From: a virus
Lineage: Duplodnaviria; Caudoviricetes
Virus record (IMG/VR): IMGVR_UViG_3300021963_000318
Span: 1-37,662 of that record
Reading direction: 5' to 3' (one strand)
DNA: 37,662 nt
The notes beneath the pieces are model-generated. The model worked only from the letters and a program-made list of their open reading frames with translations. It had not been told where the DNA came from and made no database searches. Position numbers and translations under genes: made by a program. This document shows, piece after piece, positions 11,269-34,200 of this stretch. Each line of letters begins with the position of its first letter. The first letter of the stretch is position 1.

Positions 11269-14200
11269 ATGACAGATTTGGGATTAGATGCCTTAAGTAA
11301 GATTACGGTGTTTGGAAAGTATGCAAAGTATGTACCTGAGCTTAAAAGACGTGAAACATGGGATGAGATTGTTAATCGTTATCAGGCAATGATGATTAAA
11401 AAGTATCCCAAATTAGAGGACCAGATTAAAGAAACCACTGGTTTTATTAGAGAGAAGAAGGTGCTTCCTTCTATGAGAGCCTTACAGTTTGCAGGTGCTG
11501 CAGCTGAGGTGAATAACTCCCGTATCTATAACTGCTGTTATTTACCAATTGACAGCATTCACAGCTTTAGTGAGACCATGTTCCTCCTTTTAGGGGGTAC
11601 AGGAGTGGGTTATAGTGTTCAAAAACACCATATTGCACAGCTTCCAGCTATTACAAAGCCTGGAAAACAGCGTAACTATCTAGTTGAGGATAGCATTATG
11701 GGCTGGGCTGATGCTGTAAAGGTGCTCATGAAAGCCTATCTAGAGGGTGGTTTTATGCCTAAGTTTGACTTTAGAGCTGTTCGTAAGAAAGGCGCTAGAC
11801 TGATAACAGCTGGTGGTAAAGCTCCTGGTCCTGAGCCTCTGAAGATATGTCTAGCACATGTACAGGCAGTTTTGGATAGAAAGCAAGAGGGAGAAAGCCT
11901 CACACCCCTAGAATGCCATGATATCCTGTGTCATATTGCTAACTCAGTGCTAGCTGGTGGTATCCGTAGATCTGCCATGATAGCTCTATTTAGCCATGAT
12001 GATGAGGAAATGATCACCTGTAAGTATGGAAACTGGTGGGAAACTAACGAACAGCGTGGAAGAGCTAATAACTCAGCTGTTCTGAAGCGTGGAGAGATTG
12101 GAGAAGAGGAGTTTGATTCCCTTTGGAAGAGAATTGAGCTATCTGGTTCTGGAGAGCCTGGAATCTATTGGACTAACAATCTAGACTGGGGAACTAACCC
12201 ATCTCTGAGAGCTGGTACTAAGGTGCTCACTTCAGAAGGAATATTTCCTATTGAACAACTTGAAGGCAAAGAGTTTATTGTTCCTAATTTAGATGGACAA
12301 TGGTCTCAAGCCAAATGTTGGAAGTCTGGTACAAATATCAACCTTATAGAATTGAAATTAGACACAGGAGAATCCTATTTTAGTTCTCCTGAGCACGAAT
12401 GGCCTGTGTTTATAAATGGTAGATATGTAAAAGTGAAAGCTTCTGAGATTAGAGATGGTGATAAGCTTCCTGTAAATGTATTTAATAGAGAAACTCTTCT
12501 TCAAAAAGAAGGTGTGGGCACTTATGATGAAGGGTTTCTTGCAGGATGGATTTATGGAGATGGATGTATTACAGAAAGATCAGACACTGATAAAAGAGTG
12601 GTGTCTTTGGTTGTTAGTGAAAAAGATGATGTTTTAGAAAAACTCCTATCAATAGTGAAAAGTATTGATGGTAAAGAAAGAAAAACATATCAAAGAGGAA
12701 AGGTGAATGAATTCCAAATAGGTAGTCCTGAATTCTTAAAATGGCTTGATAAATTTGGAATTGATAAAAAGTCTAAAGGACTTCCAATAGGTATTTGGAA
12801 GGATTGGTCTGAGCAGATGATTCGTGGTTTTATAGATGGTCTATTTTCATCTGATGGACATGTACCTCTTGATATGCACGGTGTTGTGTTAACATCATCT
12901 AATTATCAACTAATCAAAGATGTGCAAGACCTTCTTGGATTTTATGGCATAAAAAGCAGTTTCAGAAAGAAAACTCAAAAAGGAATAATGTTTCCAAATG
13001 GATATTCTGACAAAGAATATACTGTTTACACCATAAGAACCACAGTTCAGGGTAGGAAAAAGATGTCTTCTATTTTTAAACTATCTGTAGAGCATAAACA
13101 AAAAAATCTGACACTTTCTATAAAAGAAAAACCAGAATTTGTAAAAGTTCAATATGCAAAAAGAACAGAATTGCATGAGGATGTTTGGGATATTTCTGTA
13201 AAAGATGAAACTCATTGTTTTCATCTACCTCAGGTCACTACAGGTAACTGCTGCGAGATAGCCCTTAGGCCTTACCAGTTCTGTAATCTGTGTGAGGTGA
13301 ACGTAAGTGATGTAACTAGCCAGGAAGACCTTAACAACCGTGTTACAGCAGCTGCTTTCTTAGGCACTCTGCAAGCTGGTTTTACAGACTTCCATTATTT
13401 AAGACCTATTTGGTCTAAGACCACACAAAAAGATGCTCTATTAGGCATAGGAATGACTGGTATTGGTTCAGGGGAAATCCTTAAATATAATCTAGAAGCT
13501 GCAGCTCATGTAGCCAAACTAACTAATTCAATGATTAGTGAGAAGATTGGCATCAATGAAGCAGCTCGTGTTACATGTATTAAACCTTCTGGTACAACAT
13601 CTCTAGTGTTAGGTACAGCTAGTGGTATTCATGCATGGCATGCTCCCTATTACTTACGCACTATGCGTTTTGGTAAGAATGAGGACCTAGCAGCCTATTT
13701 AATGGTAAATCATCCAGAACTTGTTGAGGATGACCAACTTAGACCACATGATACTATTTGTGTACGTATTCCTGTAAAAGCTCCAGAAGGATCTATATTC
13801 CGTACAGAAACAGCTATTGACACCCTTGAGCGTGTTAAGAAGTTTTCTAATGAATGGATTAAGGCTGGGCATAACACAGGAGACAATACACATAACGTAT
13901 CAGCCACTATATCTATTGACAAAACTAGAACATACACAATAGATCAGTTCCTTTCCAAAGAGGTTGTAGCAGACCGTTATGATTTTGGAGGAGATGATGG
14001 ATATCTATCAGAAGGATATCATGTAAGTGATATATCAAAACATGATATTGCTAACACTAAATATGATGAGTGGGATGCTGTAGGACAATGGATGTGGGAG
14101 AATAGAGAAGTGTATAACGGACTAAGTGTTCTTCCTTACTGGGGAGGTACATATGTACAAGCTCCTTTTGAAGACATAACAGAAGATGATTATAACTCTC

Positions 14201-14310
14201 GTGTATCTCATCTAAAGAGCATCGATCTCACTAAGGTGACAGAATTAGATGATTCTGTAGACTTTGGTCAGGTGGCTGCTTGTGCAGGTGGTGCATGTGA
14301 GATAAACTAG
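11269..14310 (+). CDS. nrdJ: Class II (B12-dependent, monomeric-type) ribonucleotide reductase containing an intein
   Basis: PSMR, YNCCY, GTGVG, GGIRRSA, GEPG, TNP/CCEI, FCNL, KPSGT, C-terminal CAGGAC; no NrdB in the window. Confidence 0.85.
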   Translation: MTDLGLDALSKITVFGKYAKYVPELKRRETWDEIVNRYQAMMIKKYPKLEDQIKETTGFIREKKVLPSMRALQFAGAAAEVNNSRIYNCCYLPIDSIHSFSETMFLLLGGTGVGYSVQKHHIAQLPAITKPGKQRNYLVEDSIMGWADAVKVLMKAYLEGGFMPKFDFRAVRKKGARLITAGGKAPGPEPLKICLAHVQAVLDRKQEGESLTPLECHDILCHIANSVLAGGIRRSAMIALFSHDDEEMITCKYGNWWETNEQRGRANNSAVLKRGEIGEEEFDSLWKRIELSGSGEPGIYWTNNLDWGTNPSLRAGTKVLTSEGIFPIEQLEGKEFIVPNLDGQWSQAKCWKSGTNINLIELKLDTGESYFSSPEHEWPVFINGRYVKVKASEIRDGDKLPVNVFNRETLLQKEGVGTYDEGFLAGWIYGDGCITERSDTDKRVVSLVVSEKDDVLEKLLSIVKSIDGKERKTYQRGKVNEFQIGSPEFLKWLDKFGIDKKSKGLPIGIWKDWSEQMIRGFIDGLFSSDGHVPLDMHGVVLTSSNYQLIKDVQDLLGFYGIKSSFRKKTQKGIMFPNGYSDKEYTVYTIRTTVQGRKKMSSIFKLSVEHKQKNLTLSIKEKPEFVKVQYAKRTELHEDVWDISVKDETHCFHLPQVTTGNCCEIALRPYQFCNLCEVNVSDVTSQEDLNNRVTAAAFLGTLQAGFTDFHYLRPIWSKTTQKDALLGIGMTGIGSGEILKYNLEAAAHVAKLTNSMISEKIGINEAARVTCIKPSGTTSLVLGTASGIHAWHAPYYLRTMRFGKNEDLAAYLMVNHPELVEDDQLRPHDTICVRIPVKAPEGSIFRTETAIDTLERVKKFSNEWIKAGHNTGDNTHNVSATISIDKTRTYTIDQFLSKEVVADRYDFGGDDGYLSEGYHVSDISKHDIANTKYDEWDAVGQWMWENREVYNGLSVLPYWGGTYVQAPFEDITEDDYNSRVSHLKSIDLTKVTELDDSVDFGQVAACAGGACEIN
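12202..13248 (+). mobile_element. Intein (349 aa) with LAGLIDADG homing endonuclease, inserted at NP|CCEI
   Basis: Starts SLRAGTKVLT; block B SPEHEW; LAGWIYGDG and IDGLFSSDG; block F VWDISV; ends VTTGN before the catalytic Cys. Confidence 0.9.
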
Positions 14311-16896: not shown

Positions 16897-17195
16897 AAAA
16901 CCAATTCTTTTACACTCGTAAGGAACTAAAGAGTGGTACACCTGAAAATCCTGTGTATAATGTGTTCCGTGATAGTTTTAACATTAACAAGGTGATTCGC
17001 ACCATAAGTATTGAGGATGGAAGACTCCTCATCCTTTTGGATGATTTACATGAGCGTGCTCAAGAAATGCCTGATGTTGATCCTCGCACTAATAAGGTGA
17101 AAGGAATCAAACGTCAGAGAAACACCTTCCAGAGTGAAATCTATTTAGAACCAGAAGATGTAGAACGTTTTTATGCTGCCACTAATCTCGTGTAA
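16893..17195 (+). CDS. Hypothetical protein
   Basis: ATGA overlap; 100 aa. Confidence 0.6.
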   Translation: MKNQFFYTRKELKSGTPENPVYNVFRDSFNINKVIRTISIEDGRLLILLDDLHERAQEMPDVDPRTNKVKGIKRQRNTFQSEIYLEPEDVERFYAATNLV

Positions 17196-17922
17196 ATGCA
17201 TCACTTACGGTAGGGTGGATACGCTTGAGGAGAGTTTACATTCTTTCCTCAAGCAAGACTACCCTGCTGATAGATGTGAGCTGGTGATAGTGAATGACTA
17301 TCCTCTACAAACCCTTAAGTTTGATCACCCACAGGTGAGGATTATAAATGTCAATCACACCTTCACCACTATTGGGGCTAAGGAGAACTTTGCAACAGAA
17401 ATGTGTGAGGGGGATATTATATGCCAGTGGGATGATGATGATGTAGCTATGCCTTGGCACTTGCAGAATGTAGCTAAATATTTCACAGATGATGTAAACA
17501 TCCTCCATTGGAATCCAGGAGTGTATTATAATGGAAATAACATCACTGATATCACCTGGATAGGTAATTCAGGGATTGTGTTCCGTAAATCTGCTTGGGA
17601 AGCTGTGGGAGGTCATCCTATTGAGAATGCTGGATATGACATGACATTCATAGAAAGCCTTCATAAACACGGAGGAAGACTATTTGCTAAGCCTCCTAGA
17701 GCTGAGGCTAGCTGGTTTTATATGTGGGGAGGACGTAGCTATCATATGTCTGGTCAGGGACATGATAAGCCTGGCAAACCTAACGCTATACAAAGACACA
17801 GCGCTCATATTGAGCAGCTTAGATTCCAGGGAAAAATACCTACAGGAGATGTAGAGCTAAAGCCCAAATGGAAGCATGATTATGTTAAGATGCTTGCAGA
17901 CTTTGTAAAAGCTCATCCTTAG
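17173..17922 (+). CDS. Glycosyltransferase family 2 (GT-A)
   Basis: ISCKCITYGR, LKQDY, ELVIVND, WDDDD, GYD. Confidence 0.8.
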   Translation: MLPLISCKCITYGRVDTLEESLHSFLKQDYPADRCELVIVNDYPLQTLKFDHPQVRIINVNHTFTTIGAKENFATEMCEGDIICQWDDDDVAMPWHLQNVAKYFTDDVNILHWNPGVYYNGNNITDITWIGNSGIVFRKSAWEAVGGHPIENAGYDMTFIESLHKHGGRLFAKPPRAEASWFYMWGGRSYHMSGQGHDKPGKPNAIQRHSAHIEQLRFQGKIPTGDVELKPKWKHDYVKMLADFVKAHP

Positions 17923-18748
17923 TAAATATCCTGATGGTGTTATCACCATAGTTTGTGATGGCTATCCTACCATTTAGCGCATCTATACCATGTGGGAAGT
18001 TAAACCCACCGATTCTACCAATATATTTAAGTTTATCATCCACTAGTGTGCAATGTGCCACTGTATCATCTCCTTGAATGGTTATCAATATATCATCACC
18101 ATCCATGGTGAGAGAGTCTGTTTGTCCGTGAAATCTCACCTCATCCAGTCTTTCTAACGTAGAAAGTTTGAATAGATAGAGAATAGACTCACCTATCACG
18201 GTGGTTTGTCCTATTTGAGGAAGACTCTTTGCACACACCACTACCATTCTATCATCTTTTATATGAACATCTTTGGGGTAGTGGTCCATGTCTTTTAGGT
18301 TGCTTTTTACCACGCCTTTATTTACGTCTATAAACAAGCACCCCTTGTTAAAGTCACTATTACTAGTGATGATGATGGTGTTGCTGTCTACAATCTTACA
18401 TCCGTGAGCTTTTGTACTGGGAAGCGTGATGCTTTTCCTATACACTATCTTATCATCCACTACATCAAATATAGAAGTATGTCCATCAGGGTCAGAAAAT
18501 GGATAGTCTGATGTAACTATCACACCATCTTTATAGTCCATTAAGTCTGGATTGTAGGGAGCCTTGAAAGAGTCCAATATTTGTGAGGTGCCATCCTCTT
18601 TCAGCTCTATTAGATATATTCTTCTGCTATTAAAAGCAGCTGATACAAGCTTATTCTCATTAATCCATGCTACAGCTGTGGCTGTTGAATATCTTTTTCT
18701 ATTACCCACTGTCACCTCAGGAGCAATAGTGAGCTCATTTCTAGGCAT
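17885..18748 (-). CDS. Beta-propeller (NHL/lactonase-like) protein
   Basis: Repeated ~40-aa blades, e.g. FPHGIDALNGRIAITNYGDNTIRIF; ATG 18748 follows the upstream TGA by 1 nt. Confidence 0.55.
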   Translation of the reverse strand: MPRNELTIAPEVTVGNRKRYSTATAVAWINENKLVSAAFNSRRIYLIELKEDGTSQILDSFKAPYNPDLMDYKDGVIVTSDYPFSDPDGHTSIFDVVDDKIVYRKSITLPSTKAHGCKIVDSNTIIITSNSDFNKGCLFIDVNKGVVKSNLKDMDHYPKDVHIKDDRMVVVCAKSLPQIGQTTVIGESILYLFKLSTLERLDEVRFHGQTDSLTMDGDDILITIQGDDTVAHCTLVDDKLKYIGRIGGFNFPHGIDALNGRIAITNYGDNTIRIFTKDELLQSLQAS

Positions 18749-18749
18749 T

Positions 18750-19409
18750 TCAATAAGGAACATAAAGAGTTGTTTGTTTTTGGTTTGGGTTAGGCCAGTG
18801 CCCATCTTTTTGCTTTCTAGCTATTTCATCCAAATATTTATTTCTAATAGGAGATCCGTGTTTTGTAGAGGGTCTCATGGTAAGATTGTCTCCATGCAAT
18901 CTTCTGTGATAGGCTACACCATCAAAGGTGGTGTGTTTCACCTTGTTATACATCAGACGATTGTGAAACTCTGTATCAGCTCCACATATCCAGGGATAGA
19001 AACCATTTAGCTGGTTAAAGACATCTCTTTTGATGGCTATAACAGCATCACTCATCTTATGTCCCTTCTTTACTATTTTATTGTAGAAGTTGATGTAAGT
19101 GAGTTTTAGATAGTGCACAGGCTGTAACTGTTCTTCTATCTTCTGCAGGCTTCCTTCAGCTAACACATCATCAGCATCAAAGAAGAGGATGCTGTTATGA
19201 GAAGCTTTGTCAATCAGGGTGTTTTTAATAACATAAGGTCCTACATTAGTGGGAAAATAGAATAGGCGTATATCAGTTCTATCTTTTAAGTGGTCAAGTG
19301 TTTCTTGACAACTGTCTACCCCCACCAGTATTTCTGCTCCCTGAAGAGAAGCAATGCTCTCATCTATGTATTTTATAGCCTTGTAGGCTGGCATTATAAC
19401 AGAAAACAT
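18750..19409 (-). CDS. Glycosyltransferase family 2
   Basis: SVIMPAYK, GPYVIKN, FFDADD, GADTEF, RRLH. Confidence 0.85.
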   Translation of the reverse strand: MFSVIMPAYKAIKYIDESIASLQGAEILVGVDSCQETLDHLKDRTDIRLFYFPTNVGPYVIKNTLIDKASHNSILFFDADDVLAEGSLQKIEEQLQPVHYLKLTYINFYNKIVKKGHKMSDAVIAIKRDVFNQLNGFYPWICGADTEFHNRLMYNKVKHTTFDGVAYHRRLHGDNLTMRPSTKHGSPIRNKYLDEIARKQKDGHWPNPNQKQTTLYVPY

Positions 19410-20038
19410 TAGTCAATAGCTGTTTCTCTGTAATTAGGAATGCTCATAATAATGTACGTAGGAGTGGCTTTGCTCTTCTTTATCTTATATCCTCCTTTCA
19501 TCACTCTATCCACTAGTCTCCAATCATGCTCATATTCAGCGTCTAATCTGTATTCTTTTCTAAGGACATCTGTCTTAAAAATAAGCTCAGCATTCCCTAT
19601 CCCCCCTCTAGAAAGTGTAGAATGTCTATCTTTCTTCCAGGGCTCTGTACGAGCATTAAAATAGCCCATGTCTATGTCAGGGTTTTCCTGCATAAATCCA
19701 TAATAGTTGGCAAAATGGTTGGGCTTTAAGACATCATCATTGTCTAGAAAGCATATATATTCTCCTTGAGCTATATCAATACCATATTTGCGTGCACCAT
19801 GCCCCCATCCTCCATAACGTGTGTCCATATTATGGAAGAGGATTCTATTGCCTGTAGCAGCCATTTGTTCTTCGTATTTCTTAAATACACTCTCGTCTAG
19901 ATGCTTTTGAAACAAGGGACAATTGTCTCCTATAAACAGAGCTTCCCATCCATCAAACTTCTGGGCTACAACAGATTCTATAGCTCTAATAGTCCTCTGT
20001 GGTCTTTTCCACACAGGGCATATACATGTTAGTTTCAT
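19409..20038 (-). CDS. Glycosyltransferase family 2
   Basis: CPVWKR, GEYICFLDNDD, HDW; start set to ATG 20038, since the longer ORF runs through a terminator. Confidence 0.85.
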   Translation of the reverse strand: MKLTCICPVWKRPQRTIRAIESVVAQKFDGWEALFIGDNCPLFQKHLDESVFKKYEEQMAATGNRILFHNMDTRYGGWGHGARKYGIDIAQGEYICFLDNDDVLKPNHFANYYGFMQENPDIDMGYFNARTEPWKKDRHSTLSRGGIGNAELIFKTDVLRKEYRLDAEYEHDWRLVDRVMKGGYKIKKSKATPTYIIMSIPNYRETAID

Positions 20039-20044
20039 ACAAAT

Positions 20045-20071
20045 AAAAAAACCCCTCACAAAGGAGGGGTT
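20045..20071 (-). terminator. Rho-independent terminator closing the basic-protein operon
   Basis: Minus strand AACCCCTC-CTTTGT-GAGGGGTT followed by a T run. Confidence 0.7.
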
Positions 20072-20076
20072 GTGTG

Positions 20077-20214
20077 TTATTTTGACAATCTTTTTGTTTT
20101 TAGAGGCCACATCTTGCTCTTTAGTCTGAGTTTTGTGTCTGCCTCTTTCATATAATTAGCGTTGGGTCTTGGGTTGGGCACCTTGGGTGCTTTTTTTGGT
20201 CTACCTGATTTCAT
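20077..20214 (-). CDS. 45-aa Lys/Arg-rich protein, not in the ORF track
   Basis: MKSGRPKKAPKVPNPRPNANYMKEADTKLRLKSKMWPLKTKRLSK; ATG 1 nt after the upstream stop and ends before the terminator. Confidence 0.65.
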   Translation of the reverse strand: MKSGRPKKAPKVPNPRPNANYMKEADTKLRLKSKMWPLKTKRLSK

Positions 20215-20215
20215 A

Positions 20216-20602
20216 TTAATAACATCCTCCTCTGCATTTACCACCCATGTTCATCTTACCACCATTACGCATACTCTTTCCAATAGTGCGCTTGTAACCA
20301 CCAAGGTTACTAGATACACTCTTCTTAGAGGGAGAAAGTGTTGCCCCACCACGAGCTTTTTTAGGCTTTTTACCAGCAGCTTTCATAGCTATAGCTGTTG
20401 CAGCTTGCTTCTTTAATTTAGCACCACCTTTGGCTTGTTTCTTAGCTCCTGCAATTTTATCTGCATATGTAGGATTGGGATTTTTATCAATCCCAGCCTT
20501 CACTGAGAGCATTCCAAAAGAACTTCCACTTTTAGCTTTCTTGTGCATACCACCATGTTTCATTGTGGAATATCCACCCATTGCTTTTTTAATCTTTGCC
20601 AT
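20216..20602 (-). CDS. Highly basic protein with many xxGG motifs
   Basis: KKAMGG, MKHGG, QAKGG, KARGG, MRNGG, MNMGG, CRGG. Confidence 0.75.
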   Translation of the reverse strand: MAKIKKAMGGYSTMKHGGMHKKAKSGSSFGMLSVKAGIDKNPNPTYADKIAGAKKQAKGGAKLKKQAATAIAMKAAGKKPKKARGGATLSPSKKSVSSNLGGYKRTIGKSMRNGGKMNMGGKCRGGCY

Positions 20603-20623
20603 TTGTATTTAAGTTTTTAATTG

Positions 20624-21064
20624 TTAGCAGTTCCATTTCCTCAAACTTTTATTGATTCTGCTATTTGGATCATTAGCAGTTTTAGCAGATGTACGACTTC
20701 TCTTCATACCTGACATTCTCGCACAAAAGCTCTTACGTCTATTAGCAGCTTTACTTCCAGGCTTTAACTTGGAAGGTTTTGTAGTGACAGCCATCTTTAA
20801 TTTACTTCCAGGATTAGCAGCTCTATAGCTTGCCACTCCCTTAGCATTTAGTCCTCCAGATTCTGACTTACCAGCTTTACGAGTCCATGCTGCAGTTTTA
20901 CCACCAGAGCGCATTTTGGGAGCTCTACGTGCTTCACGTTTAGCTTCTCTATCAGCTAGTCTATCAGCTCTACGGTTTTCTTTTGCAGCAATTCTTTCAT
21001 CTCTACGAACTTGTTTTTCAATACCACAAGTTCTACCAAACTGAGCTTTACTAATTTTACCCAT
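20624..21064 (-). CDS. Highly basic protein with a DUF6321-like C-terminal module
   Basis: KAQFG leader, MRSGG linker, then AAWTRKAGK...GGLNAKG...RRKSFCARM...SLRKWNC. Confidence 0.7.
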   Translation of the reverse strand: MGKISKAQFGRTCGIEKQVRRDERIAAKENRRADRLADREAKREARRAPKMRSGGKTAAWTRKAGKSESGGLNAKGVASYRAANPGSKLKMAVTTKPSKLKPGSKAANRRKSFCARMSGMKRSRTSAKTANDPNSRINKSLRKWNC

Positions 21065-21066
21065 GG

Positions 21067-21534
21067 TTATTTCTTTTTCTTTGTAAAACGCATATTGCCC
21101 ATACTGCTTTTAGCAGATCCTAGCTTTTTAGAAACACTAGATTTCTTAGGAATAAGCTTACCAGTTTTAGCTTTTGCTGTACCACCTGTTTTGTAATTCT
21201 GTTTCTTTATTTGTCTTTTCACCTCACCAGCAGCTCTTACGTTTCTATTTCCAGAACCTATATTTTTTTCGCTCATCATGCTGTTATAATCATCCTTAAT
21301 TCTTGAGAATATATCTGTAAGCTTAGGATTTATATAAGCATCAGTTGATCTATTAGGATTGGAAGTTCCTATTTTCTTTACCTTTGAAGCTTCAGATCCT
21401 ATTTTTCTGGATATTTGGTTCTCTGCAAAGTCTTTAGCCTGTTTTTTTCTTGACATGTTTGATATACGATTGGCTGCTTCTGGAGCATACTTACTCAACC
21501 ATGAACCAATTTGGGCTTTTTTTGGACGTTTCAT
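21067..21534 (-). CDS. Highly basic protein
   Basis: KKAQIG leader, YKTGG and KAKTG motifs. Confidence 0.7.
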   Translation of the reverse strand: MKRPKKAQIGSWLSKYAPEAANRISNMSRKKQAKDFAENQISRKIGSEASKVKKIGTSNPNRSTDAYINPKLTDIFSRIKDDYNSMMSEKNIGSGNRNVRAAGEVKRQIKKQNYKTGGTAKAKTGKLIPKKSSVSKKLGSAKSSMGNMRFTKKKK

Positions 21535-21980
21535 TTCTTCTTTTTGTAGTAATTAGGATTTTCCCTGTGCCACTTCTTAACAGAAGCAACACCCTGTTTT
21601 ACTGTCTTAGCTTTGGCTTTTTTAGTGAGGTTAATTTTGTCCCATTTACCAGCAGGAATACCAGCTGTATGGTCTACAACAATATCACCCTTTTTATTCT
21701 TAAACACCTTGTGAGTTTGCCCTCCTACCTTCACCACCTTACCACCCTTTTGAAGAGTGGAACCTGCATAAGGTCCTTTCTTCTTAACTAGTGGTCCATT
21801 GGGAACAGGAGTGATGGAGCCCTTAATAGCTGTAATTGTATCACCACTCCTTAAAACACGTTTACCCACATAAGCTTCTGCTTTCTGTGGGTTACGTACG
21901 CCATTCCCTCTTGTTACATTCTGAGGAAGTGTATTGCGCAATCTAGGAGCGCTCTTAAGGAGTTTCTTAATGCTTGGCAT
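21531..21980 (-). CDS. Highly basic protein
   Basis: LQKGG linker before a C-terminal module; overlaps both neighbours. Confidence 0.7.
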   Translation of the reverse strand: MPSIKKLLKSAPRLRNTLPQNVTRGNGVRNPQKAEAYVGKRVLRSGDTITAIKGSITPVPNGPLVKKKGPYAGSTLQKGGKVVKVGGQTHKVFKNKKGDIVVDHTAGIPAGKWDKINLTKKAKAKTVKQGVASVKKWHRENPNYYKKKK

Positions 21981-22366
21981 TATTTCTTCTTCTTAGAAGT
22001 TGTAGATTTAGTCTTAGTAACAGGTTTAGCTTTAGGTTTAGCTTTAGCTTTAGTCACTTTACCACCTGCTTTCTTCTTTTGAAGTGCCTTTTTTTGAGCT
22101 TCGTAAGTGCTGTCTCGTCTAGCATTTTCTCTTTGAAAACTTTTATTTCCAAGAGCACCACCAACACGACTTACACCTTCTGAAAGTCCTCTAGCCATTT
22201 GAATAAATGGGTGCAATCGTAACGCTTGATTAACTAGATTCTCTGGATCTTTAGGATTTTTCTTAATCCTTCTGATGGCATTAGATATGCTCAGATCATC
22301 ACCTAAATTTCTAGTTTCAGGTACGTTTCTGCCAGTTTGAGCTTTTCTTTTTAATATACGTCTCAT
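21980..22366 (-). CDS. Highly basic protein with a histone-H1-like Lys-rich tail
   Basis: RKAQTG leader; KKAGG then KVTKAKAKPKAKPVTKTK; ATG 22366, GTG 22372 also possible. Confidence 0.7.
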   Translation of the reverse strand: MRRILKRKAQTGRNVPETRNLGDDLSISNAIRRIKKNPKDPENLVNQALRLHPFIQMARGLSEGVSRVGGALGNKSFQRENARRDSTYEAQKKALQKKKAGGKVTKAKAKPKAKPVTKTKSTTSKKKK

Positions 22367-22368
22367 AA

Positions 22369-22755
22369 TCACTTTCCTTTACGTCCTTTGGACATCTTCT
22401 TTAAGGTCTGAGCAAGACGTGCACGCTGACCTAATTTACCTTTAGACTTAGCAGCTTTAGCTAGCTTAGCAGCAGGGATGGGTTTACCAGGCTTAGCACC
22501 AAGTTGAGCACGAAGAGCTCCAGGCTTCTTGATAGCACTCTGAATCCATTTGCCACCTTTAGCCTTCACCTTAGCACCCTTCTTAGCAGTCATGCTAGTG
22601 GCACCAAGTTCTTTATCACGCGTAAGACTAACTGGTGTGCGTTTACCAGCAAGTGTCATTTCTTGCACCTTTGTCCAAGCGCCCTTAGGATCAACAGGTC
22701 CTACACGCTTAGTAGAAGCATTCAAACCACGTTGAGCTTTTTTAATGTGTCTCAT
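22369..22755 (-). CDS. Highly basic protein
   Basis: KKAQRG leader; KVKAKGG then KWIQSAIKKPGALR...RARLAQTL module. Confidence 0.75.
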   Translation of the reverse strand: MRHIKKAQRGLNASTKRVGPVDPKGAWTKVQEMTLAGKRTPVSLTRDKELGATSMTAKKGAKVKAKGGKWIQSAIKKPGALRAQLGAKPGKPIPAAKLAKAAKSKGKLGQRARLAQTLKKMSKGRKGK

Positions 22756-22935
22756 TTTCCTTTAGCTTTAATTTTACGTTCTTGTTTTAGCATTGCTGCT
22801 GTAGGTTTTTTACCAGGCTTACCAGCAGCTTTATTACGTTTAGCTGCTGCACGAATGTTATCCCACAAACCACGTTGTGAAACAGAACCATCAGCACGCT
22901 TAATCATTTGTTTACCACCTTTAGCTTTCACCTTA
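22553..22935 (-). repeat. 21-nt direct repeat (22553-22573 and 22915-22935) encoding the KVKAKGG linker
   Basis: ccacctttagc(c/t)ttcacctta, one mismatch, in two adjacent genes. Confidence 0.8.
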
Positions 22936-23183
22936 ATACCTTTTCTTCCAATATTCTTTTGAGAAGCAGGCATAGAGCCTTTTTTCTTAAGTTCTTCCAT
23001 CATTCCTTTACCAGGAGCGCTAAGATCAACATCTTTTTTACGAGATGGAGTTTGTTTAGTAGGCAGACGAAATATATCTCTATACTCTTTAATAGTGCGA
23101 GCAGTGTCCACCTTTACACCTTTTGGCATACCTCCTTTTCCTATAGGAGAACCTCCAGTTTGATATTTTTTAATCTTTCTCAT
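22752..23183 (-). CDS. Highly basic protein
   Basis: KKYQTGG leader; KVKAKGG then KRADGS..RGLWDNIR module. Confidence 0.75.
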   Translation of the reverse strand: MRKIKKYQTGGSPIGKGGMPKGVKVDTARTIKEYRDIFRLPTKQTPSRKKDVDLSAPGKGMMEELKKKGSMPASQKNIGRKGIKVKAKGGKQMIKRADGSVSQRGLWDNIRAAAKRNKAAGKPGKKPTAAMLKQERKIKAKGK

Positions 23184-23185
23184 GT

Positions 23186-23425
23186 TTATAAGTTTGCTTG
23201 TTGAGGAGTTTCTTCCACCTCTTTCACTACACCTGTTTCAACAGCTTGTGCCATCTTTTGCTCAATAACAAGAGCTGCTTCGTTAGCTAAGAGGATTCTT
23301 TGTGCTTCTGGAGTGCTTGTAAGAACACGGAGAGCGTTCAAAAGCAAACCAAATTCATTACCGCTGAGCTCAAATTTGTCTTCAGCAGTCCATGTGTACT
23401 TCTTTGAAGGATCGTAAGTTGCCAT
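23186..23425 (-). CDS. Small acidic hypothetical protein, first gene of the basic-protein operon
   Basis: Glu-rich and helical; directly downstream of the promoter. Confidence 0.65.
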   Translation of the reverse strand: MATYDPSKKYTWTAEDKFELSGNEFGLLLNALRVLTSTPEAQRILLANEAALVIEQKMAQAVETGVVKEVEETPQQANL

Positions 23426-23452
23426 AATTTATGTAAGTTTTTGGTTTAGAAA

Positions 23453-23485
23453 CAAATATAAGGGTATTTTGGTCAATCTGCCAAA
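23453..23485 (-). promoter_or_regulatory. Bacteroidota sigma-type promoter
   Basis: Minus strand TTTG-N21-TATATTTG. Confidence 0.7.
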
Positions 23486-24072
23486 TTTATTTCAAGTTTT
23501 AGTTTTTGGTTTCTCATTCTTGATTCTGTTACTTTTCTAACATGTTCTGGAGATTTTTTCTTACCAAGAGCAGAGTTTCTCATTTTTAGTTTTGTTTCCT
23601 CTGAGTGAACTCTTCCTTTTCTAGATTTTCCCATTTTCAGTCGTGTTTCTTCAGATGCAGAACTTCCTAATCTTATAGTATTCCCCATCATAAACTCGCT
23701 TCTTTTCTTCTTAAACTCTTCAGAACATTTTCTTCCAGTGTTTGCTTTTCTTAACTTCTCAACACTTTCTGCAGAGTGTTTTCCACGACTACCTGCTTCT
23801 CGAATATTTATTAACTCTATGTTACAATCTCTAAACTGATCCATGTAAAACTGTTCATAGTTGTCAAGAATAGTTTGAGTAATATCCTCAGGTAACTCAT
23901 GAAGTATCATAAACTCATGATTATCAACACCATACTTCAAAAATGAGTTATAGAGTTTTGGTTGTCGTTTACAAGTAAGATTTTTATAGTTAGATATTCT
24001 TCTCTTAAAATTCCATGTCTGTCCTATATAGATCTTACCAGAAGGAGATGATATTTTGTATATAGTAACCAT
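23473..24072 (-). CDS. Free-standing GIY-YIG homing endonuclease with NUMOD3 repeats
   Basis: TIYKI...IYIGQT, RR..Y, LDNYEQ; HSAES/HSEETK repeats. Confidence 0.85.
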   Translation of the reverse strand: MVTIYKISSPSGKIYIGQTWNFKRRISNYKNLTCKRQPKLYNSFLKYGVDNHEFMILHELPEDITQTILDNYEQFYMDQFRDCNIELINIREAGSRGKHSAESVEKLRKANTGRKCSEEFKKKRSEFMMGNTIRLGSSASEETRLKMGKSRKGRVHSEETKLKMRNSALGKKKSPEHVRKVTESRMRNQKLKLEINLAD

Positions 24073-24353
24073 CAGATTTCTATTTCAAATGTTATGGTAC
24101 TAGAGCTCTTAATGCTTTTAGACAGCTGGAGCTTGATACCAAACAGGTTGTGAAACTTTAATAGCTCCTCTAGTAACATCTGTGTGTACATAGGCACTGA
24201 AGGAGCTATTCTAAAGTGGTATGAATAAGGGTTCTTAGTCACTTCCATAGAGGATAGCTCATCTATGGAATCTATAAGTCCTTGGAGGTGTGAAAAATAA
24301 GCAAGTTCGTTATCAGGCATCACCTCAGGGAAGAACCTCTTACTGATTGTCAT
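24072..24353 (-). CDS. Hypothetical protein
   Basis: Stop/start overlaps on both sides. Confidence 0.6.
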   Translation of the reverse strand: MTISKRFFPEVMPDNELAYFSHLQGLIDSIDELSSMEVTKNPYSYHFRIAPSVPMYTQMLLEELLKFHNLFGIKLQLSKSIKSSSTITFEIEI

Positions 24354-24772
24354 TAGGACAGGGTTAATAAATAACGTGCTTTTGCAGCTTCTCCACTTAA
24401 TGATTGAGCAATGTTCTCAATATCAGGCATGTTGTTAGCAGCTGCGTAGTTCTCAAGCTGTTTAGCAAAGCTAATTAGCTCACTTACAACAGCATCGCTA
24501 ACTCCCACACCATAGTCTTTAAGACCATTCACTCCTATAGTTTTAGCTCTAGTGTTTGTATAGCCCATCACCTTTTCCACTATTTCATCTTTCAGGTCAA
24601 ACACCTTGTCATACAGTCCACCAAGAGCTAAATGCTCAGCGTGGTTTCTTGTAGCCCAATGTAGGTTATGAAGCTGAATCTCAAAATAAGAAAGCTTTGT
24701 AGCTATAGCATCTGGAGAAAGTTCTCCACCAGATGTGTTTAGCATCTTCTCAGGAAACAGTGACTTTGCCAT
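24353..24772 (-). CDS. Dps/ferritin-like four-helix protein
   Basis: HNLHW...HLALGGLYD...DEIVE ferroxidase-like motif; YLL at the C-terminus. Confidence 0.75.
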   Translation of the reverse strand: MAKSLFPEKMLNTSGGELSPDAIATKLSYFEIQLHNLHWATRNHAEHLALGGLYDKVFDLKDEIVEKVMGYTNTRAKTIGVNGLKDYGVGVSDAVVSELISFAKQLENYAAANNMPDIENIAQSLSGEAAKARYLLTLS

Positions 24773-24921: not shown

Positions 24922-25362
24922 TTATCCAATTCCAATGTTCCATCCAGAAACATTATCTGTGCACACTCTTCTAAATCCAATAGCACATGATTGTTCTAGA
25001 ATATTATTTGGAACATAGTAGTAGTATACATTACCAACAATGTTTGTAACATCTAATGTGATGATTACTCCTGGAGGTTCTGACTCACAGCTAATCATTG
25101 CCACTTGTAATGTAGGATTGGTGAAAGGATTAGTTTCAATTGCAAATATTGCTCCCTCTGGCTGACTTATTAAATCATTGATAATAAAGTCTTCTCCATA
25201 AACAGGAGGAGTACAGCTTGGATCACAGCACTCGTAAGCACCAATTTGTTTCCAATTACCCACCTTAGGTTTAGAGCGCTGGAGGATCAAACTTCCAGAT
25301 ATTAGTCTGCCTGTGCCATCATAGCGCACAAAGGCTTTCAAGTCTTTTTTATTGCTTGCCAT
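24922..25362 (-). CDS. Putative virion accessory protein, paralog A2
   Basis: N-terminal LKAFVRYDGTGR...KPKVGNW...YECC shared with the 25373-25759 gene. Confidence 0.6.
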   Translation of the reverse strand: MASNKKDLKAFVRYDGTGRLISGSLILQRSKPKVGNWKQIGAYECCDPSCTPPVYGEDFIINDLISQPEGAIFAIETNPFTNPTLQVAMISCESEPPGVIITLDVTNIVGNVYYYYVPNNILEQSCAIGFRRVCTDNVSGWNIGIG

Positions 25363-25372
25363 TTCTTAAAGT

Positions 25373-25759
25373 TTAAATAAGGGTGGTAGTTGTTGTTGTA
25401 GTGGGAAGAACGCCACAAGGACCTCCTTCTAACACCTCACTTGTTTCTCCTGAGATGGCAACAGTGCCTTGTTGAGCACAGAACTGGATAACATCTGGTC
25501 CAACAATTTCAAATTCTGCAATAGTGCCATTACAGTTGTTATAGGTGAGAGTTACAGTTTCTTCTCCTACAATAGCTTCATACTGAATGCATGGAAGCTG
25601 TGTTGTTGTGGTGGGATTGCAGCATTCATAAGCTGGAATTTCTACCCAGTTACCCACCTTGGGTTTCTTTCTTCTGAGTATCAGGCTGCTAGGAACGATT
25701 CTCCCAGTACCATCAAAGCGTACAAAAGCTTTGAGAGGGCGTTTGTCAATTGTGGCCAT
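25373..25759 (-). CDS. Putative virion accessory protein with Thr runs, paralog A1
   Basis: Same N-terminal domain; PTTTTQ and PTTTTTTT tracts. Confidence 0.6.
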   Translation of the reverse strand: MATIDKRPLKAFVRFDGTGRIVPSSLILRRKKPKVGNWVEIPAYECCNPTTTTQLPCIQYEAIVGEETVTLTYNNCNGTIAEFEIVGPDVIQFCAQQGTVAISGETSEVLEGGPCGVLPTTTTTTTLI

Positions 25760-25761
25760 GA

Positions 25762-26778
25762 TTAATAGTTTAATTTATATTTGTTAAAAAGTTGTTTCAG
25801 TTTGTTTGCGTAATACCACGTACAACGTGTCTTAGCTTTTTCATCATTTAGGACAGCATCTAGGTGAGGGTCTTTACTAGGATCTAGTCCTTTGTGGTAT
25901 TTACCTTTATAGAAGCAATTATATCCATCCATGGAGGTGGATACAATCCCTGCGTTATGAAGGATGGGGTGTGTATCTAGTTTTGTAATGGGGTCTGGAG
26001 CCCAGCTGAATCCCATCTCAGGAACCACCCTTGTTTCAGCTTCTCTGAGCCATAGATTCCAAAGAAGTGCCCACATATCAGCACACCAGCTCTGGAATCC
26101 TTTGCTTTCGCTTTCAAAGAAGTCTCTATTCACCTTTTGTAGATAGGACCTGATGACAATTGTGTCTGTCATCATCTTTTTCCAGAAGGCTGCATCTATA
26201 TTCTTTATAAGATATTGAGCTCCTCCTGAATGTTCGTTATGCGCCTCAGCTATCTCTCTGCTTATTCCCACAACACTAGCTATTTCAGCCAGGATGTCTC
26301 TTGTTTTATACTCCTCCAGCTTGTCTGGAAGAACATCTTTAATCTTAGAGTCAAAATACTTAGCGTTAATATAGCTGTTCGCATCTGATAGGTAGTTTAT
26401 GTCATCATCTACAAACTGTTGAATATCAAACTTTTCTGTAAATAGAATGTCTGAATCACAGTAGAATATTGCCTTTGAGCTCATGTCTGGATGGTCCTTG
26501 AAATACCTCCAGAGAACATAAGGTCTTAGAATGGGAATGTATATACCCAATAAATCACTAATACTATCTGTGTCTTTGTAGAAAACAAACTCAGCTTCTG
26601 GGTAGAGGGCAATCACCTGGTCCCATTTCTCATTTCGTTCTCTGTACTTAGGGATAAAAATGAGGACAATAGCTTTGTCACTATCTCCTCTTTCCTTTAA
26701 GCTTTCTAGCCATAGATTCACCTGCCATGTGTAGTAGGTATCATCTGGCTGAGCTGTAACATACTTAAGCTCCTTCAT
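25762..26778 (-). CDS. GT-A glycosyltransferase resembling HPAT/peptidyl-serine galactosyltransferase (GT95/GT96)
   Basis: YYTWQ..L, YIPILRP..L..YF, YCDSDILF, GAQYL, WCADMWA. Confidence 0.6.
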   Translation of the reverse strand: MKELKYVTAQPDDTYYTWQVNLWLESLKERGDSDKAIVLIFIPKYRERNEKWDQVIALYPEAEFVFYKDTDSISDLLGIYIPILRPYVLWRYFKDHPDMSSKAIFYCDSDILFTEKFDIQQFVDDDINYLSDANSYINAKYFDSKIKDVLPDKLEEYKTRDILAEIASVVGISREIAEAHNEHSGGAQYLIKNIDAAFWKKMMTDTIVIRSYLQKVNRDFFESESKGFQSWCADMWALLWNLWLREAETRVVPEMGFSWAPDPITKLDTHPILHNAGIVSTSMDGYNCFYKGKYHKGLDPSKDPHLDAVLNDEKAKTRCTWYYANKLKQLFNKYKLNY

Positions 26779-28148: not shown

Positions 28149-28274
28149 TTATCTGCCTTGACCTCTATATTTAGAGACCTTTTTATCTTTTGGACCTCTG
28201 GATTTTCTAGCTTTGCCACCCTTGCGTTTGCCAAAGGTGATTTTCCTAGAGTCTGTTAGTTTTCCTTTTGCCAT
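28149..28274 (-). CDS. 41-aa basic protein ending YRGQGR, not in the ORF track
   Basis: MAKGKLTDSRKITFGKRKGGKARKSRGPKDKKVSKYRGQGR. Confidence 0.65.
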   Translation of the reverse strand: MAKGKLTDSRKITFGKRKGGKARKSRGPKDKKVSKYRGQGR

Positions 28275-31151: not shown

Positions 31152-31183
31152 CAAATCTATGAAAAAGTTTTGAAACTACCAAA
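31152..31183 (-). promoter_or_regulatory. Bacteroidota sigma-type promoter for the lysis cassette
   Basis: Minus strand TTTG-N20-TAGATTTG. Confidence 0.7.
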
Positions 31184-31200
31184 TATTTTTTCTACCTTTG
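31169..31200 (+). promoter_or_regulatory. Bacteroidota sigma-type promoter for the GT fusion gene
   Basis: TTTG-N20-TACCTTTG. Confidence 0.7.
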
Positions 31201-31220
31201 GGACAGAAAATCAAGTGGTT

Positions 31221-34200
31221 ATGCCCAATAGTTATGACTATTTCAAGCAGGATGTAAGACAGTGGTTTATAGATAATGTTCCCTTAAACAAAAGAATCTT
31301 AGATGTGGGTCCTGGACAGGGCACCTATTCAGAGCTCCTAAGAGACCTAGGATATAGAATAGATGCTGTGGAGGTGTTTGCTCCCTACGTGGATAGGTTT
31401 GATTTAAGGGATAAATATGATAGTGTTTATGTGGCAAACATCCTAAATTTTGATGTAAAACCCTATGACTTCATCATTCTAGGAGATGTGCTAGAACACA
31501 TTCCTACAGAGCTAGCCCAAAACCTGCTTACAGATTTTGATTTAATGGACAAGAGGTTTCTAGTGGCTGTACCCTATATGATGCCTCAGGATGGTGAGCA
31601 GTATGGGAATGAATATGAAACTCATCATCAGCCAGATCTCACACCAGAGGTGATAGCAAAACGCTATCCAGGACTAGTGAAGCTGTACGATAACCAGTGG
31701 TATGGATATTATGTAAATGAGGATGTTAGATGGGAAAAAGCCTATGTGCTCTATGCTACAGAGAGCTATAAAGAAACTGTCCAAGCCTGTGTAGATTCCA
31801 TTTTAACATTTAGCAAGTTTCCTGTGGTAATGGTGTATATGCTCAACTCAGATGTAAAAATTGAAGGAGCAGTCACCTTTCGTTGGAATTGTGATGTCAA
31901 GGATATACCCCAACAGAAATATATTGACAGGTCTAATAGCGACATCTATAACATCCTTATACAGCGTCCACTAATTGTTAAAGATGCATTAACACATGCT
32001 AAAATAGTGGCTTATATAGATAGTGATAGTGTTGCCACCAAGTATATAGACAGGATATTTAGCTTCTTCTCACCAAAGTCCGTTTATCCCTATTTCACAG
32101 AAGGGATATATGACTGGATGATACTTAATGGTAGAGGTGGGGCTGACAGTAGAGATGATATGTCAGGCACCCTTGAACATCCAGCCTGTGAGCTGTTTGG
32201 TGTGGACCAATACATCAGGGATAAATATAGACAGACAGGGTATTTTGTAGCTGGTGATTGGTGTATAGACTTCCTAGATGAGTGGGCATGGATGTGTAAC
32301 CATCCAAGGATAATTCAGAATCCACAATGGTATGCTCCCTATCACGAGGAAACCATAGCTAATGTACTTCTATGGAAATACAAAGCCTTTAGTGGACTGC
32401 CATACATATACATTAATGGGTCCTTAGATAGGGTGAATAATTTAACATTCACAGGTAGGAAGCAACACACCAACCATTTTGTTGCTGTGCCTGCTGTTGA
32501 GAATCAACTGCTATTCTACCATGGAGAGAAGGATGCTGTCACTATGTACAGGATGATAGAGCGTCAAAAGAACCAGCTAAAGGTGTTATTCCTTGCACCA
32601 CATCTATCTACAGGAGGCATGCCTGCATTCCTTCTAGAGAGAATCAAAGACCTAATTAAATACACCAACACTAGAATCATTGTGGTGGAATATGCCAATC
32701 ACAGTGATCATTATGTAGTGCAGAAAAAACAGATAAAAGAGCTAGCTCACCACTTCTACACACTAGGAACTGATAAACTAGAGATAGTGGATATTATTAA
32801 AAGACATGCTGTAGATATAGTGCACATAGATGAGATGGTGGAAGATGGGCATAATAACTGGCCAGAAGAGGTGAGACAAGCTATTTACAATCCAGATAGA
32901 ACCTGGAGAGTGATTGAAACATGTCACAACATTATATTCAAACCAGATATTGAGAAGCGCTATCATCCAGATGCATATGCATTCTGTACTCCTTTCCATC
33001 TAAAGACATTTGCTAACATGCCTTCTAGAAAAGAGGTGATAGAATATCCTATTGTAAGGAAAAACAGTGCACCTATGATAGGATGGGGACCAGGGAAACA
33101 TGTGCTCAATGTAGGACTATGGACTCCTGGAAAGAATCAAGGAGAAGCTGTAGAGCTAGCTAGACAAATGCCAGATGTAACATTTCATTTTGTAGGAAAT
33201 CAAGCAGGCAACTTCCAGCACTACTGGGAACCTATTATGAAAGACCTACCTTCTAATGTACATGTGTGGGGAGAAAGAGATGATATAGATGGGTTTATGG
33301 CATCTGCAGATGTGTTCCTATTCAATAGCACATTTGAATGTAATCCACTAGTGATTAGAGAAGCTATAGGACACGGGTTACCAATTCTAGCTCGCAATCT
33401 TCCTCAATATGGAGATATGTTCACGCCCTATATTACAGATCTGAAGCCTGAGAAAATGAAAGAACAGCTCACAGAGCTGTTAAAAACTAAACCAACATAC
33501 ACCATTCCCGTAGAACAAAGACTTCAGTTTGCTCAAAAACACATTGATTTATATCATGAGGTGGTAGATAAACCAATACAGCCTCAAGAGGAAAGCGTGA
33601 CAATTGTTCACTATTTTATTCATGAACCGTTTCTAGAAATAAGAGGAAACTCTAAAAGCAAATTCCTAGTTAAATATTTTGATGAGCAGGGAACATGTCA
33701 CTTTGATAGTGAAATCACCACTAACAACTGGGTGAAGCTCAACAGAAGATGGTATACCAAATGGACTATTAAGGTGTGGAAGGATGGTGATTTGTATTAT
33801 GAATACACACTAGACTACACAGGTAAGCGTGTGTACATAGCTTTTGACAGTAAGTCACTAGGAGACACTATAGCCTGGATGCCTTATGTGTTAGAGTTTC
33901 AGAAAAAGCACAATTGTAAGGTGGTGGTGAGCACACACAAAAACTTTCTCTTTAAAGATGTCTATCCAGAGCTTGAGTTTGTCAAGCCTGGAGAGAGGAT
34001 AGATAACATTATTGGTATGTACAGCATAGGATGGTTTTACAATCCTGACAAAGAACCGCTTTTGTGTAACACTATAAGGCTTCAAGAGGCAGCTACAAAC
34101 ATCTTAGGCCTTGATTATCAAGAACTTAAACCAAGAATTAGCTTTACGCCTGGTAACAATTTATATGGTAAATATGTTACGATAGCCACTAATTCTACAG

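Follow-up and report, generated by a model that had tools for sequence, protein, structure and literature searches.

Organization of the mini-protein operon

The DNA examined is a 37.7-kb virus record (IMG/VR IMGVR_UViG_3300021963_000318, positions 1 to 37,662; this whole stretch is called the window below), in which the plus strand carries the replication genes and the minus strand those for lysis and glycosyltransferases together with small genes. Between positions 20045 and 23485 lies an operon made of a promoter, a gene for a 79-amino-acid (aa) protein, eight genes for small Lys-rich proteins (the mini-proteins) and a terminator. An earlier note on this DNA had described these proteins as modules joined at Gly-Gly motifs and had put them forward as a protease-matured, DNA-condensing core. 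The promoter (TTTG-N21-TATATTTG) and the terminator (a hairpin at 20071-20050 plus a T tail) were found where the note had placed them, and so were its nine open reading frames (ORFs), all on the minus strand; the product that it had called acidic has a net charge of only -5. In the following list, a seam is the glycine-containing motif met at module junctions and a leader is the N-terminal stretch ending in that motif.

23453..23485 (minus strand): promoter-like site TTTG-N21-TATATTTG; both elements present in 19 of 38 related loci
23186..23425 (minus strand): conserved 79-aa protein, mildly acidic (net -5), first gene past the promoter; no family match
22752..23183 (minus strand): mini-protein 1, 143 aa; leader YQTGG (23151-23165) and a variable insert, then seam AKGGK (22911-22925) and the portable module KQMIKRADG...GLWDNIR
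22369..22755 (minus strand): mini-protein 2, 128 aa; leader AQRGL, module LNASTKRVGP, seams AKKGA and AKGGK, module KWIQSAIKKPG
21980..22366 (minus strand): mini-protein 3, 128 aa (130 from GTG 22372); leader AQTGR and an insert without a relative in any of 160 loci, then seam KKAGG and a Lys/Ala tail
21531..21980 (minus strand): mini-protein 4, 149 aa; no leader seam, LQKGG (21741-21755) connecting two portable modules
21067..21534 (minus strand): mini-protein 5, 155 aa; leader AQIGS and a rare insert, then seams YKTGG and AKTGK and the short module IPKKSSVSKKLG
20624..21064 (minus strand): mini-protein 6, 146 aa; leader AQFGR and an Arg/Glu-rich segment, then seam MRSGG (20900-20914) and the DUF6321 module (20624-20899), in which two Cys are invariant
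20216..20602 (minus strand): mini-protein 7, 128 aa; six seams between very short modules
20077..20214 (minus strand): mini-protein 8, 45 aa, without a seam (25 loci); closes the cluster in the closest relatives shown
20045..20071 (minus strand): intrinsic terminator-like hairpin (20071-20050) with T tail
28149..28274 (minus strand): ninth basic mini-ORF, 41 aa, ending KYRGQGR, outside the operon

The eight basic proteins have net charges of +13 to +32, a Lys+Arg content of 24-33% with more Lys than Arg, and predicted isoelectric points of 10.7-12.0. The promoter-like site agrees with TTTG-N21-TAnnTTTG, which we take to be the Bacteroidota-type consensus, and is likely to be a late promoter read by the host polymerase. 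The operon limits drawn in the earlier note enclose all eight basic genes and leave out the ninth mini-ORF, look-alikes of which were found in many relatives, upstream of the cluster, and in pelagiphage Greip.

When viral contigs were searched with mini-protein 1, 531 relatives were obtained among 601 pattern matches and 80 loci were kept; here and below, counts over loci or proteins take in related sequences and do not represent independent events. The 79-aa gene lies directly upstream of the mini-protein genes in 36 of the 80 loci, and it is missing from the other 44, which also hold modules.

No head genes lie in the window, which is itself a fragment. A complete relative with terminal repeats, G001 (114 kb), carries a near-identical mini-protein cluster and encodes crassvirus capsid, tail-ring, portal and terminase proteins as well as giant cargo genes, in conserved order (PF23898, PF24228, PF25702, PHROG portal, TerL). 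Since these Crassvirales genes occur in G001 together with this cluster, the window is assigned to a crAss-like phage, of which it is a fragment. The sequencing runs holding the cluster bear marine, estuary, lake and pond labels, and contigs from another study matched pieces of the region without differences; RNA run X24 gave only short, relative-level pieces of it. Clusters of basic mini-proteins with the same seams were also observed in a second lineage, with HTVC023P-type capsids, to which the cultured phages HTVC023P, DSL-LC04 and Pag-Yong1 belong. A tblastn search of cultured phages with mini-protein 2 gave no match.

The seam motif has two forms

Every GG peptide quoted in the earlier note was recovered in the translated proteins. 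Counted as plain GG, their enrichment in the window mini-proteins was modest, with 19 copies against 11.2±3.0 expected from 20,000 shuffles of the same composition (P near 0.01). The motif is indeed non-random, and it is not simply xxGG: it takes two forms, [MFY]-x-x-G-G and K-A-[QK]-x-G-x. This two-form pattern, taken from 150 independent proteins resembling the cargo protein C1 (see below) and clustered at 50%, occurs 14 times in the seven longer mini-proteins against 1.05±1.0 times after shuffling (maximum 7 in 20,000), and twice in the 51 other ORFs of the window (10,857 aa). Furthermore, the seven proteins had been held to be otherwise dissimilar, and six of them were found to open with a common leader, closed by the motif inside the first 14 residues (shuffled mean 0.11).

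The register of the seam was followed in 287 distinct basic mini-proteins, selected by composition from the 80 loci. In these, the bulky form K-[YFMLQ]-[QKR]-x-G was followed by Gly in 70 of 81 distinct contexts. Among the 150 C1-like proteins, A-[QK]-x-G-nonG reached 2.7 times the shuffled level and M/F/Y-[QK]-x-G-G 4.5 to 12 times. Positions 1 and 5 of the motif covary, Ala going with non-Gly and a bulky residue with Gly, and a hydrophobic residue is conserved two places past the motif in C1-like proteins (L, V, I, M or A in 86% for the bulky form). As both the mini-protein and the C1 sets contain kin, the seam counts overstate the number of independent events.

Portable modules and exchange of the joining signal

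Profiles of the window modules matched between 0 and 123 of the 160 loci, the inserts o1a, o3a, o3b, o5a and o5b matching only 0-2. Four modules were found to start at a seam in 16 of 34, 16 of 19, 13 of 17 and 20 of 26 distinct contexts, respectively; they formed the free N-terminus in 10, 3, 3 and 0. The motif thus marks the junctions of shuffled modules, as the earlier note had suggested, and modules do stand alone elsewhere.

Residues 65-144 of mini-protein 6 correspond to DUF6321 (Pfam PF19846; 64.9 bits, cut-off 28.5), a domain also represented by PHROGs 727, 4689, 11180 and 3477. It matched 517 records of the phage collection, mainly cyanophages and pelagiphages, and the term was absent from the literature searched. 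Two Cys are invariant in it. An AlphaFold model of the seam plus DUF6321, built on 38 sequences, had a mean pLDDT (predicted local distance difference test) of 77, with values below 50 in the seam; the predicted C1 segment likewise folds from just past its seam. Fold searches with DUF6321 gave no Foldseek match, a best VIA Z of 4.4 and Atlas hits below 0.9, with no clear solved fold, and no histone- or HU-like fold was present in the top rows.

The sequences preceding DUF6321 were compared in the best 240 of about 15,000 protein hits and in the carriers from the kept loci, a set biased to close relatives because it was drawn from the top of these hits. After 16 contexts without an anchor and the duplicates had been dropped, 201 distinct contexts remained. 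A GG seam preceded the module in 77 of them and a [LIVMFY]-x-E site in 92; in 14 it came directly after a bare Met, and in 18 it followed another sequence, several of the last being Ala-form or shifted seams. L or I was present in 74 of the 92 E-type sites, and the background of the pattern in the same proteins was 12%. In T4, gp21 cuts after L/I-X-E, and a 10-residue leader targets the protein and is then removed (PMC9026906, available portion). N-termini scoring at least 15 against the leader of T4 internal protein III (IPIII) were observed in 50 of the 92 E-type contexts and in none of the 77 GG-type contexts.

In five cultured cyanophages, the DUF6321 module stands behind x-x-E in a chain of modules, adjoining the terminase genes in four of them, and in two pelagiphages it starts at Met. 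For two further window modules, a position behind L/I-x-E was found as well, each time in two proteins (E 2e-3, and 1e-7 to 5e-7). Minimal forms exist in both codes: a T4-type leader plus module (L164), and a GG leader of 5-9 residues plus module (P0051, L131), in which the seam links nothing. S-SCSM1, a phage of the E type, has a gp21-family protease, and its carrier of the module is labelled 'virion protein', a label whose mass-spectrometry (MS) basis is unconfirmed. By analogy with T4, the E sites in cyanophages would be cut by a gp21-type protease.

Since DUF6321 follows a GG seam, a gp21-type site or a bare Met, it was concluded from these comparisons that the modules are common to several lineages and that the joining signal is swapped. 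As T4-like phages place some of the same modules behind T4-type sites, the Gly seam is likely to be the lineage's own signal by which head-internal proteins would be loaded and perhaps cut.

The motif in C1 cargo proteins

In G001, G004 and G005, the motif was enriched only in the mini-proteins (15-17 copies per 1000 aa) and in C1 plus its neighbour (6-8.5). The C2, virion RNA polymerase (vRNAP), head/tail and other genes had 0-0.4 copies per 1000 aa, at or below the shuffled level, the classes being set by position and PHROG/Pfam hits and the largest ORFs being partly cut at stretch ends. The two motif-rich genes outside the mini-proteins lie between a muzzle-like gene and C2, and one of them is a C1 homologue. 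The C1 domain of the relatives, which Pfam did not recognise, matches crAss001 gp45 (hhalign 87%, E 4e-6), and its fold search had 7qog_M as top VIA row, a weak match (Z 4.7, root-mean-square deviation 5.1, 92 aligned).

In crAss001, gp45 (C1; PDB 7QOG; PF25725) is a virion cargo protein detected by MS (PMC10172136, available portion). It contains 8 copies of [AFYML]-x-x-G-G against 3.4 in shuffled sequences (P 0.017), including a K-A-K-G-G-K copy near the C-terminus, and the MS-annotated g070 of phi14:2 contains 4 against 0.7 (P 0.004); gp46 has none and g069 has 2, which is not significant. The CARG1 portal-binding domain is present in gp45 and in phi14:2 g070, and Pfam detected it in no window mini-protein. 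Unlike the mini-proteins, gp45 is a single protein of 842 aa, for which a membrane helix is predicted. It was matched by no window module profile, and the accessible portions of the gp45 literature searched mention neither the motif nor cleavage. A homology of the KWIQ module to gp45 375-424, suspected by eye, was not detected by iterated profiles.

Because C1 cargo proteins bear the same motif, the mini-proteins are probably virion cargo, as the earlier note had supposed.

Interpretation of the seam

The mini-protein operon is a real and non-random variant of the internal-protein theme. IPI, IPII and IPIII of T4 are likewise small, basic and variable among relatives, and they too have a leader, some 10 residues long, that closes with a conserved site (PMC9026906, PMC9958956 and PMC7411985, available portions), and T4-like cyanophages carry three of the window modules behind T4-type leaders and L/I-x-E sites. 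The two systems differ in that the window leaders do not resemble the capsid-targeting sequences of IPII and IPIII (scores -12 to +2), that the net charge of the window proteins is +27 to +32 as against +2 to +9 for the T4 internal proteins, and that the window modules are chained.

We propose that the mini-proteins are head cargo similar to the T4 internal proteins, and that the seam is a loading and probably also a processing signal, cut at some sites, a proposal to which we give an even chance. The mini-proteins would be expressed late from the host-type promoter, and a prohead component would recognise the leader of 9-13 residues and the internal seams. In the role that the capsid-targeting sequence and the gp21 site have in T4, the seam would bring the proteins into the prohead, and a putative protease would probably release modules at some seams. 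Packaged along with the DNA, the mini-proteins may bind nucleic acid non-specifically, as suggested by net charges near +30, and would be delivered into the host together with other cargo. The conserved modules may shield charge or protect DNA, a function independent of the host, and the rare inserts may be fast-changing effectors, as at T4 internal-protein loci. The processing or loading role suggested in the earlier note is thus favoured by the presence of the same modules behind gp21-type sites, whereas cutting of the adenain type is unsupported.

Several observations weigh against this proposal. The C2 and vRNAP subunits are cargo and yet lack the motif in G001, G004 and G005, and modules standing alone without a seam occur in crAss-like loci as well; the seam is therefore not required for all loading. 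The mini-modules were found in none of the cultured crassvirus stretches examined, so that no proteomics bears directly on the mini-proteins, and none was found in the literature searched for any carrier of the GG type. As regards cutting, K-A-[QKR]-x-G is followed by a residue other than Gly in 126 of 131 distinct contexts in the mini-proteins of the 80 loci, and in the Ala form of C1-like proteins the second Gly is replaced 590 times versus 54. A seam lies within 15 aa of the C-terminus in 50 of 161 mini-proteins, and 62 of 219 seam spacings are of 12 aa or less, so that a cut at these places would free little. The gp45 segment resolved on the portal by cryo-electron microscopy is 425-552 (PMC10172136, available portion) and opens with the motif A425-F-G-G428; since the resolved segment includes A425-G428, the copies concerned are uncut after the GG of this seam. 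In the same source, gp45 214-552 is interpreted as one chain by its authors.

The search for a protease points in the same direction. An S77 (gp21-family) protease was detected in none of four crAss-like records, the positive control S-SCSM1 being found and the genome of the window being incomplete. In a Pfam scan of 90 ORFs of G001, which left out mostly ORFs equivalent to annotated window genes, plus the mini-proteins, there was no head peptidase and none of the C5/C48/C57 type, which the earlier note had suggested might lie elsewhere in the genome; most G001 ORFs have no family assignment, so a diverged peptidase could escape such a scan. The statement of the note that the window contains no protease agreed with the absence of C5, C48 and C57 matches among its 57 ORFs. 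To our knowledge, no head or prohead protease has been assigned in crassviruses.

The internal-protein reading can be extended. At least four aquatic phage lineages (T4-like cyanophages, crassviruses, HTVC023P-type phages and other pelagiphages) would then share a pool of basic mini-domains re-addressed in a lineage-specific manner, and the Gly seam would be the substrate and loading code of a putative crassvirus head-maturation protease. We advance this extension tentatively, as a possible but doubtful one.

It is rather unlikely, although it accounts for several of the above observations, that the proteins are head cargo and the seam an uncut docking handle, probably a small turn or hairpin, several copies of which would be bound by the portal, the scaffold or the capsid wall. 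The portal-bound gp45 segment opens with a seam that is intact in the model, the covariation of positions 1 and 5 together with the hydrophobic residue two places on fits a size-compensating pair, and tandem and C-terminal copies fit avidity. However, a constraint on both sides is also possible for a protease site, the seam is unstructured in the predicted models, and before the same module it stands in the register taken elsewhere by gp21-type sites and free N-termini.

We consider it improbable that the seam is a mere flexible hinge or recombination landmark and that the proteins act in the infected cell, outside the virion, by nucleoid, RNA or ribosome binding. Near-repeats do exist in seam-coding DNA, alignment breakpoints relative to the relatives fall near seams in 9 of 20 cases (4.0 expected), modules without a seam stand alone, and in G001 the mini-protein cluster lies apart from the cargo genes. 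Yet the 21-nt linker repeat described in the earlier note is in reality a near-repeat identical at 28 of 33 nt, exact matches in the cluster reach only 14 nt, and the seam-coding near-repeats are degenerate at synonymous positions. In addition, leaders with nothing upstream retain the motif, and the shared modules are found elsewhere behind T4 capsid-targeting leaders, one of the carriers being that with the unconfirmed 'virion protein' label.

Adenovirus pVII and pre-mu and the polyproteins of African swine fever virus (ASFV) mature at Gly-Gly sites, the adenain consensus being (M/L/I)xGG or (M/L/I)xGxG, and like the window they have basic peptides separated by Gly-containing sites. The core modelled on them, in which an adenain/pS273R-like Gly-Gly cysteine protease matures protamine-like genome-condensing peptides with the 79-aa protein as chaperone, is very improbable: its high net charge, the GG at many junctions and the conserved place of the 79-aa gene directly upstream (36 of 80 loci) are set against 0 sites matching the adenain consensus in the seven longer proteins, a variable second Gly, no such peptidase among the 90 G001 ORFs, an unrelated virus group, crAss001 DNA at ordinary density with no core described (PMC10172136, available portion), and a 79-aa protein that is only mildly acidic and missing from 44 of 80 module loci. 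The condensing and the chaperone role are supported by charge and adjacency only. A complex prediction of the 79-aa protein with the seam-DUF6321 module gave no verdict (score 0.00).

Other comparisons, peptidase-like proteins and neighbouring genes

Phage polyvalent proteins (Iyer et al., PMC5512222, available portion) are likewise shuffled strings of domains delivered with the genome, and in phi14:2 g070 HExxH modules follow seams. The window modules differ from polyvalent proteins in being tiny, basic and devoid of a recognisable catalytic motif; neither 'crass' nor 'GG motif' was found in the portion of that article available. In lambda gpH (L192:143-2704), similar Aromatic/Met-x-x-G-G peptides occur at 737, 782 and 846, all within the C-terminal portion, which is removed by cleavage at a site estimated near 690-730 and not known exactly (PMC12617516, available portion). 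As the C1 profile gave no match to gpH, this was retained as a resemblance only.

Some peptidase-like proteins were observed around the cluster and in C1. The phrog_3704 ('WDC') protein is encoded within mini-protein clusters belonging to two unrelated lineages (L137:4383-5072, L161:4280-4954, L182:3523-4002) and has conserved Cys, His and Asp; its 'ferredoxin' label is doubtful. As a general protease it was rejected, being present in only 7 of 160 loci and, by profile search, in none of the G001, G004 and G005 ORFs; the search of its family had no positive control. A small HExxH protein of 147-149 aa (L083:5270-5713 in G001; G004 83253-83702) lies near the cluster on the opposite strand; none was seen in the window or in G005. 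HExxH was otherwise found in one 3781-aa G001 protein only, and in 3 of the 150 C1 proteins. By eye, a peptidase-M15-like motif set was seen behind an Ala-form seam in the C1 of G001 (L085:16605-20000), and this segment is possibly a cell-wall hydrolase module.

Just upstream of the promoter, a GIY-YIG homing endonuclease gene (23473-24072, minus strand), absent from close relatives, is inserted; the 3' end of this gene imitates that of the 93-aa gene before it and holds the upstream promoter element. A Dps/ferritin-like DUF5856 gene (24353-24772, minus strand) is near the cluster in 53 of 80 loci. Two genes occupy 24922-25759 (minus strand), of which at least the first starts with a small conserved 'KAYVRYDG'-type domain, present in the relatives in 1-3 copies with variable tails (36 of 80 loci). 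The 338-aa phrog_4417 protein (25762-26778, minus strand) resembles HPAT-type protein O-glycosyltransferases (Atlas 0.97, the family being on only 10% of that cluster). In 34 of 80 loci its gene falls inside the flank retrieved, next to genes for small proteins that have Thr-rich tails in the relatives, and the protein is a candidate glycosylator of virion proteins. Elsewhere in the window are a ribonucleotide reductase carrying an intein and a LAGLIDADG domain (11269-14310, plus strand), and several GT2 glycosyltransferases and a 1159-aa fusion of a methyltransferase with multiple glycosyltransferases (17173-20110 and 31170-34649).

Significance

Neither the seam motif nor these mini-protein clusters were described in the literature searched, and the DUF6321 module has thousands of relatives and no described function. 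We know of no mechanism established for the selection and loading of head cargo in crassviruses. The seam motif gives named residues in cultured phages, namely in crAss001 gp45, phi14:2 g070, HTVC023P gp43 and DSL-LC04. If it is a true loading signal, it would be the crassvirus equivalent of the T4 capsid-targeting tag, and cargo would be predictable from sequence in very abundant uncultured phages.

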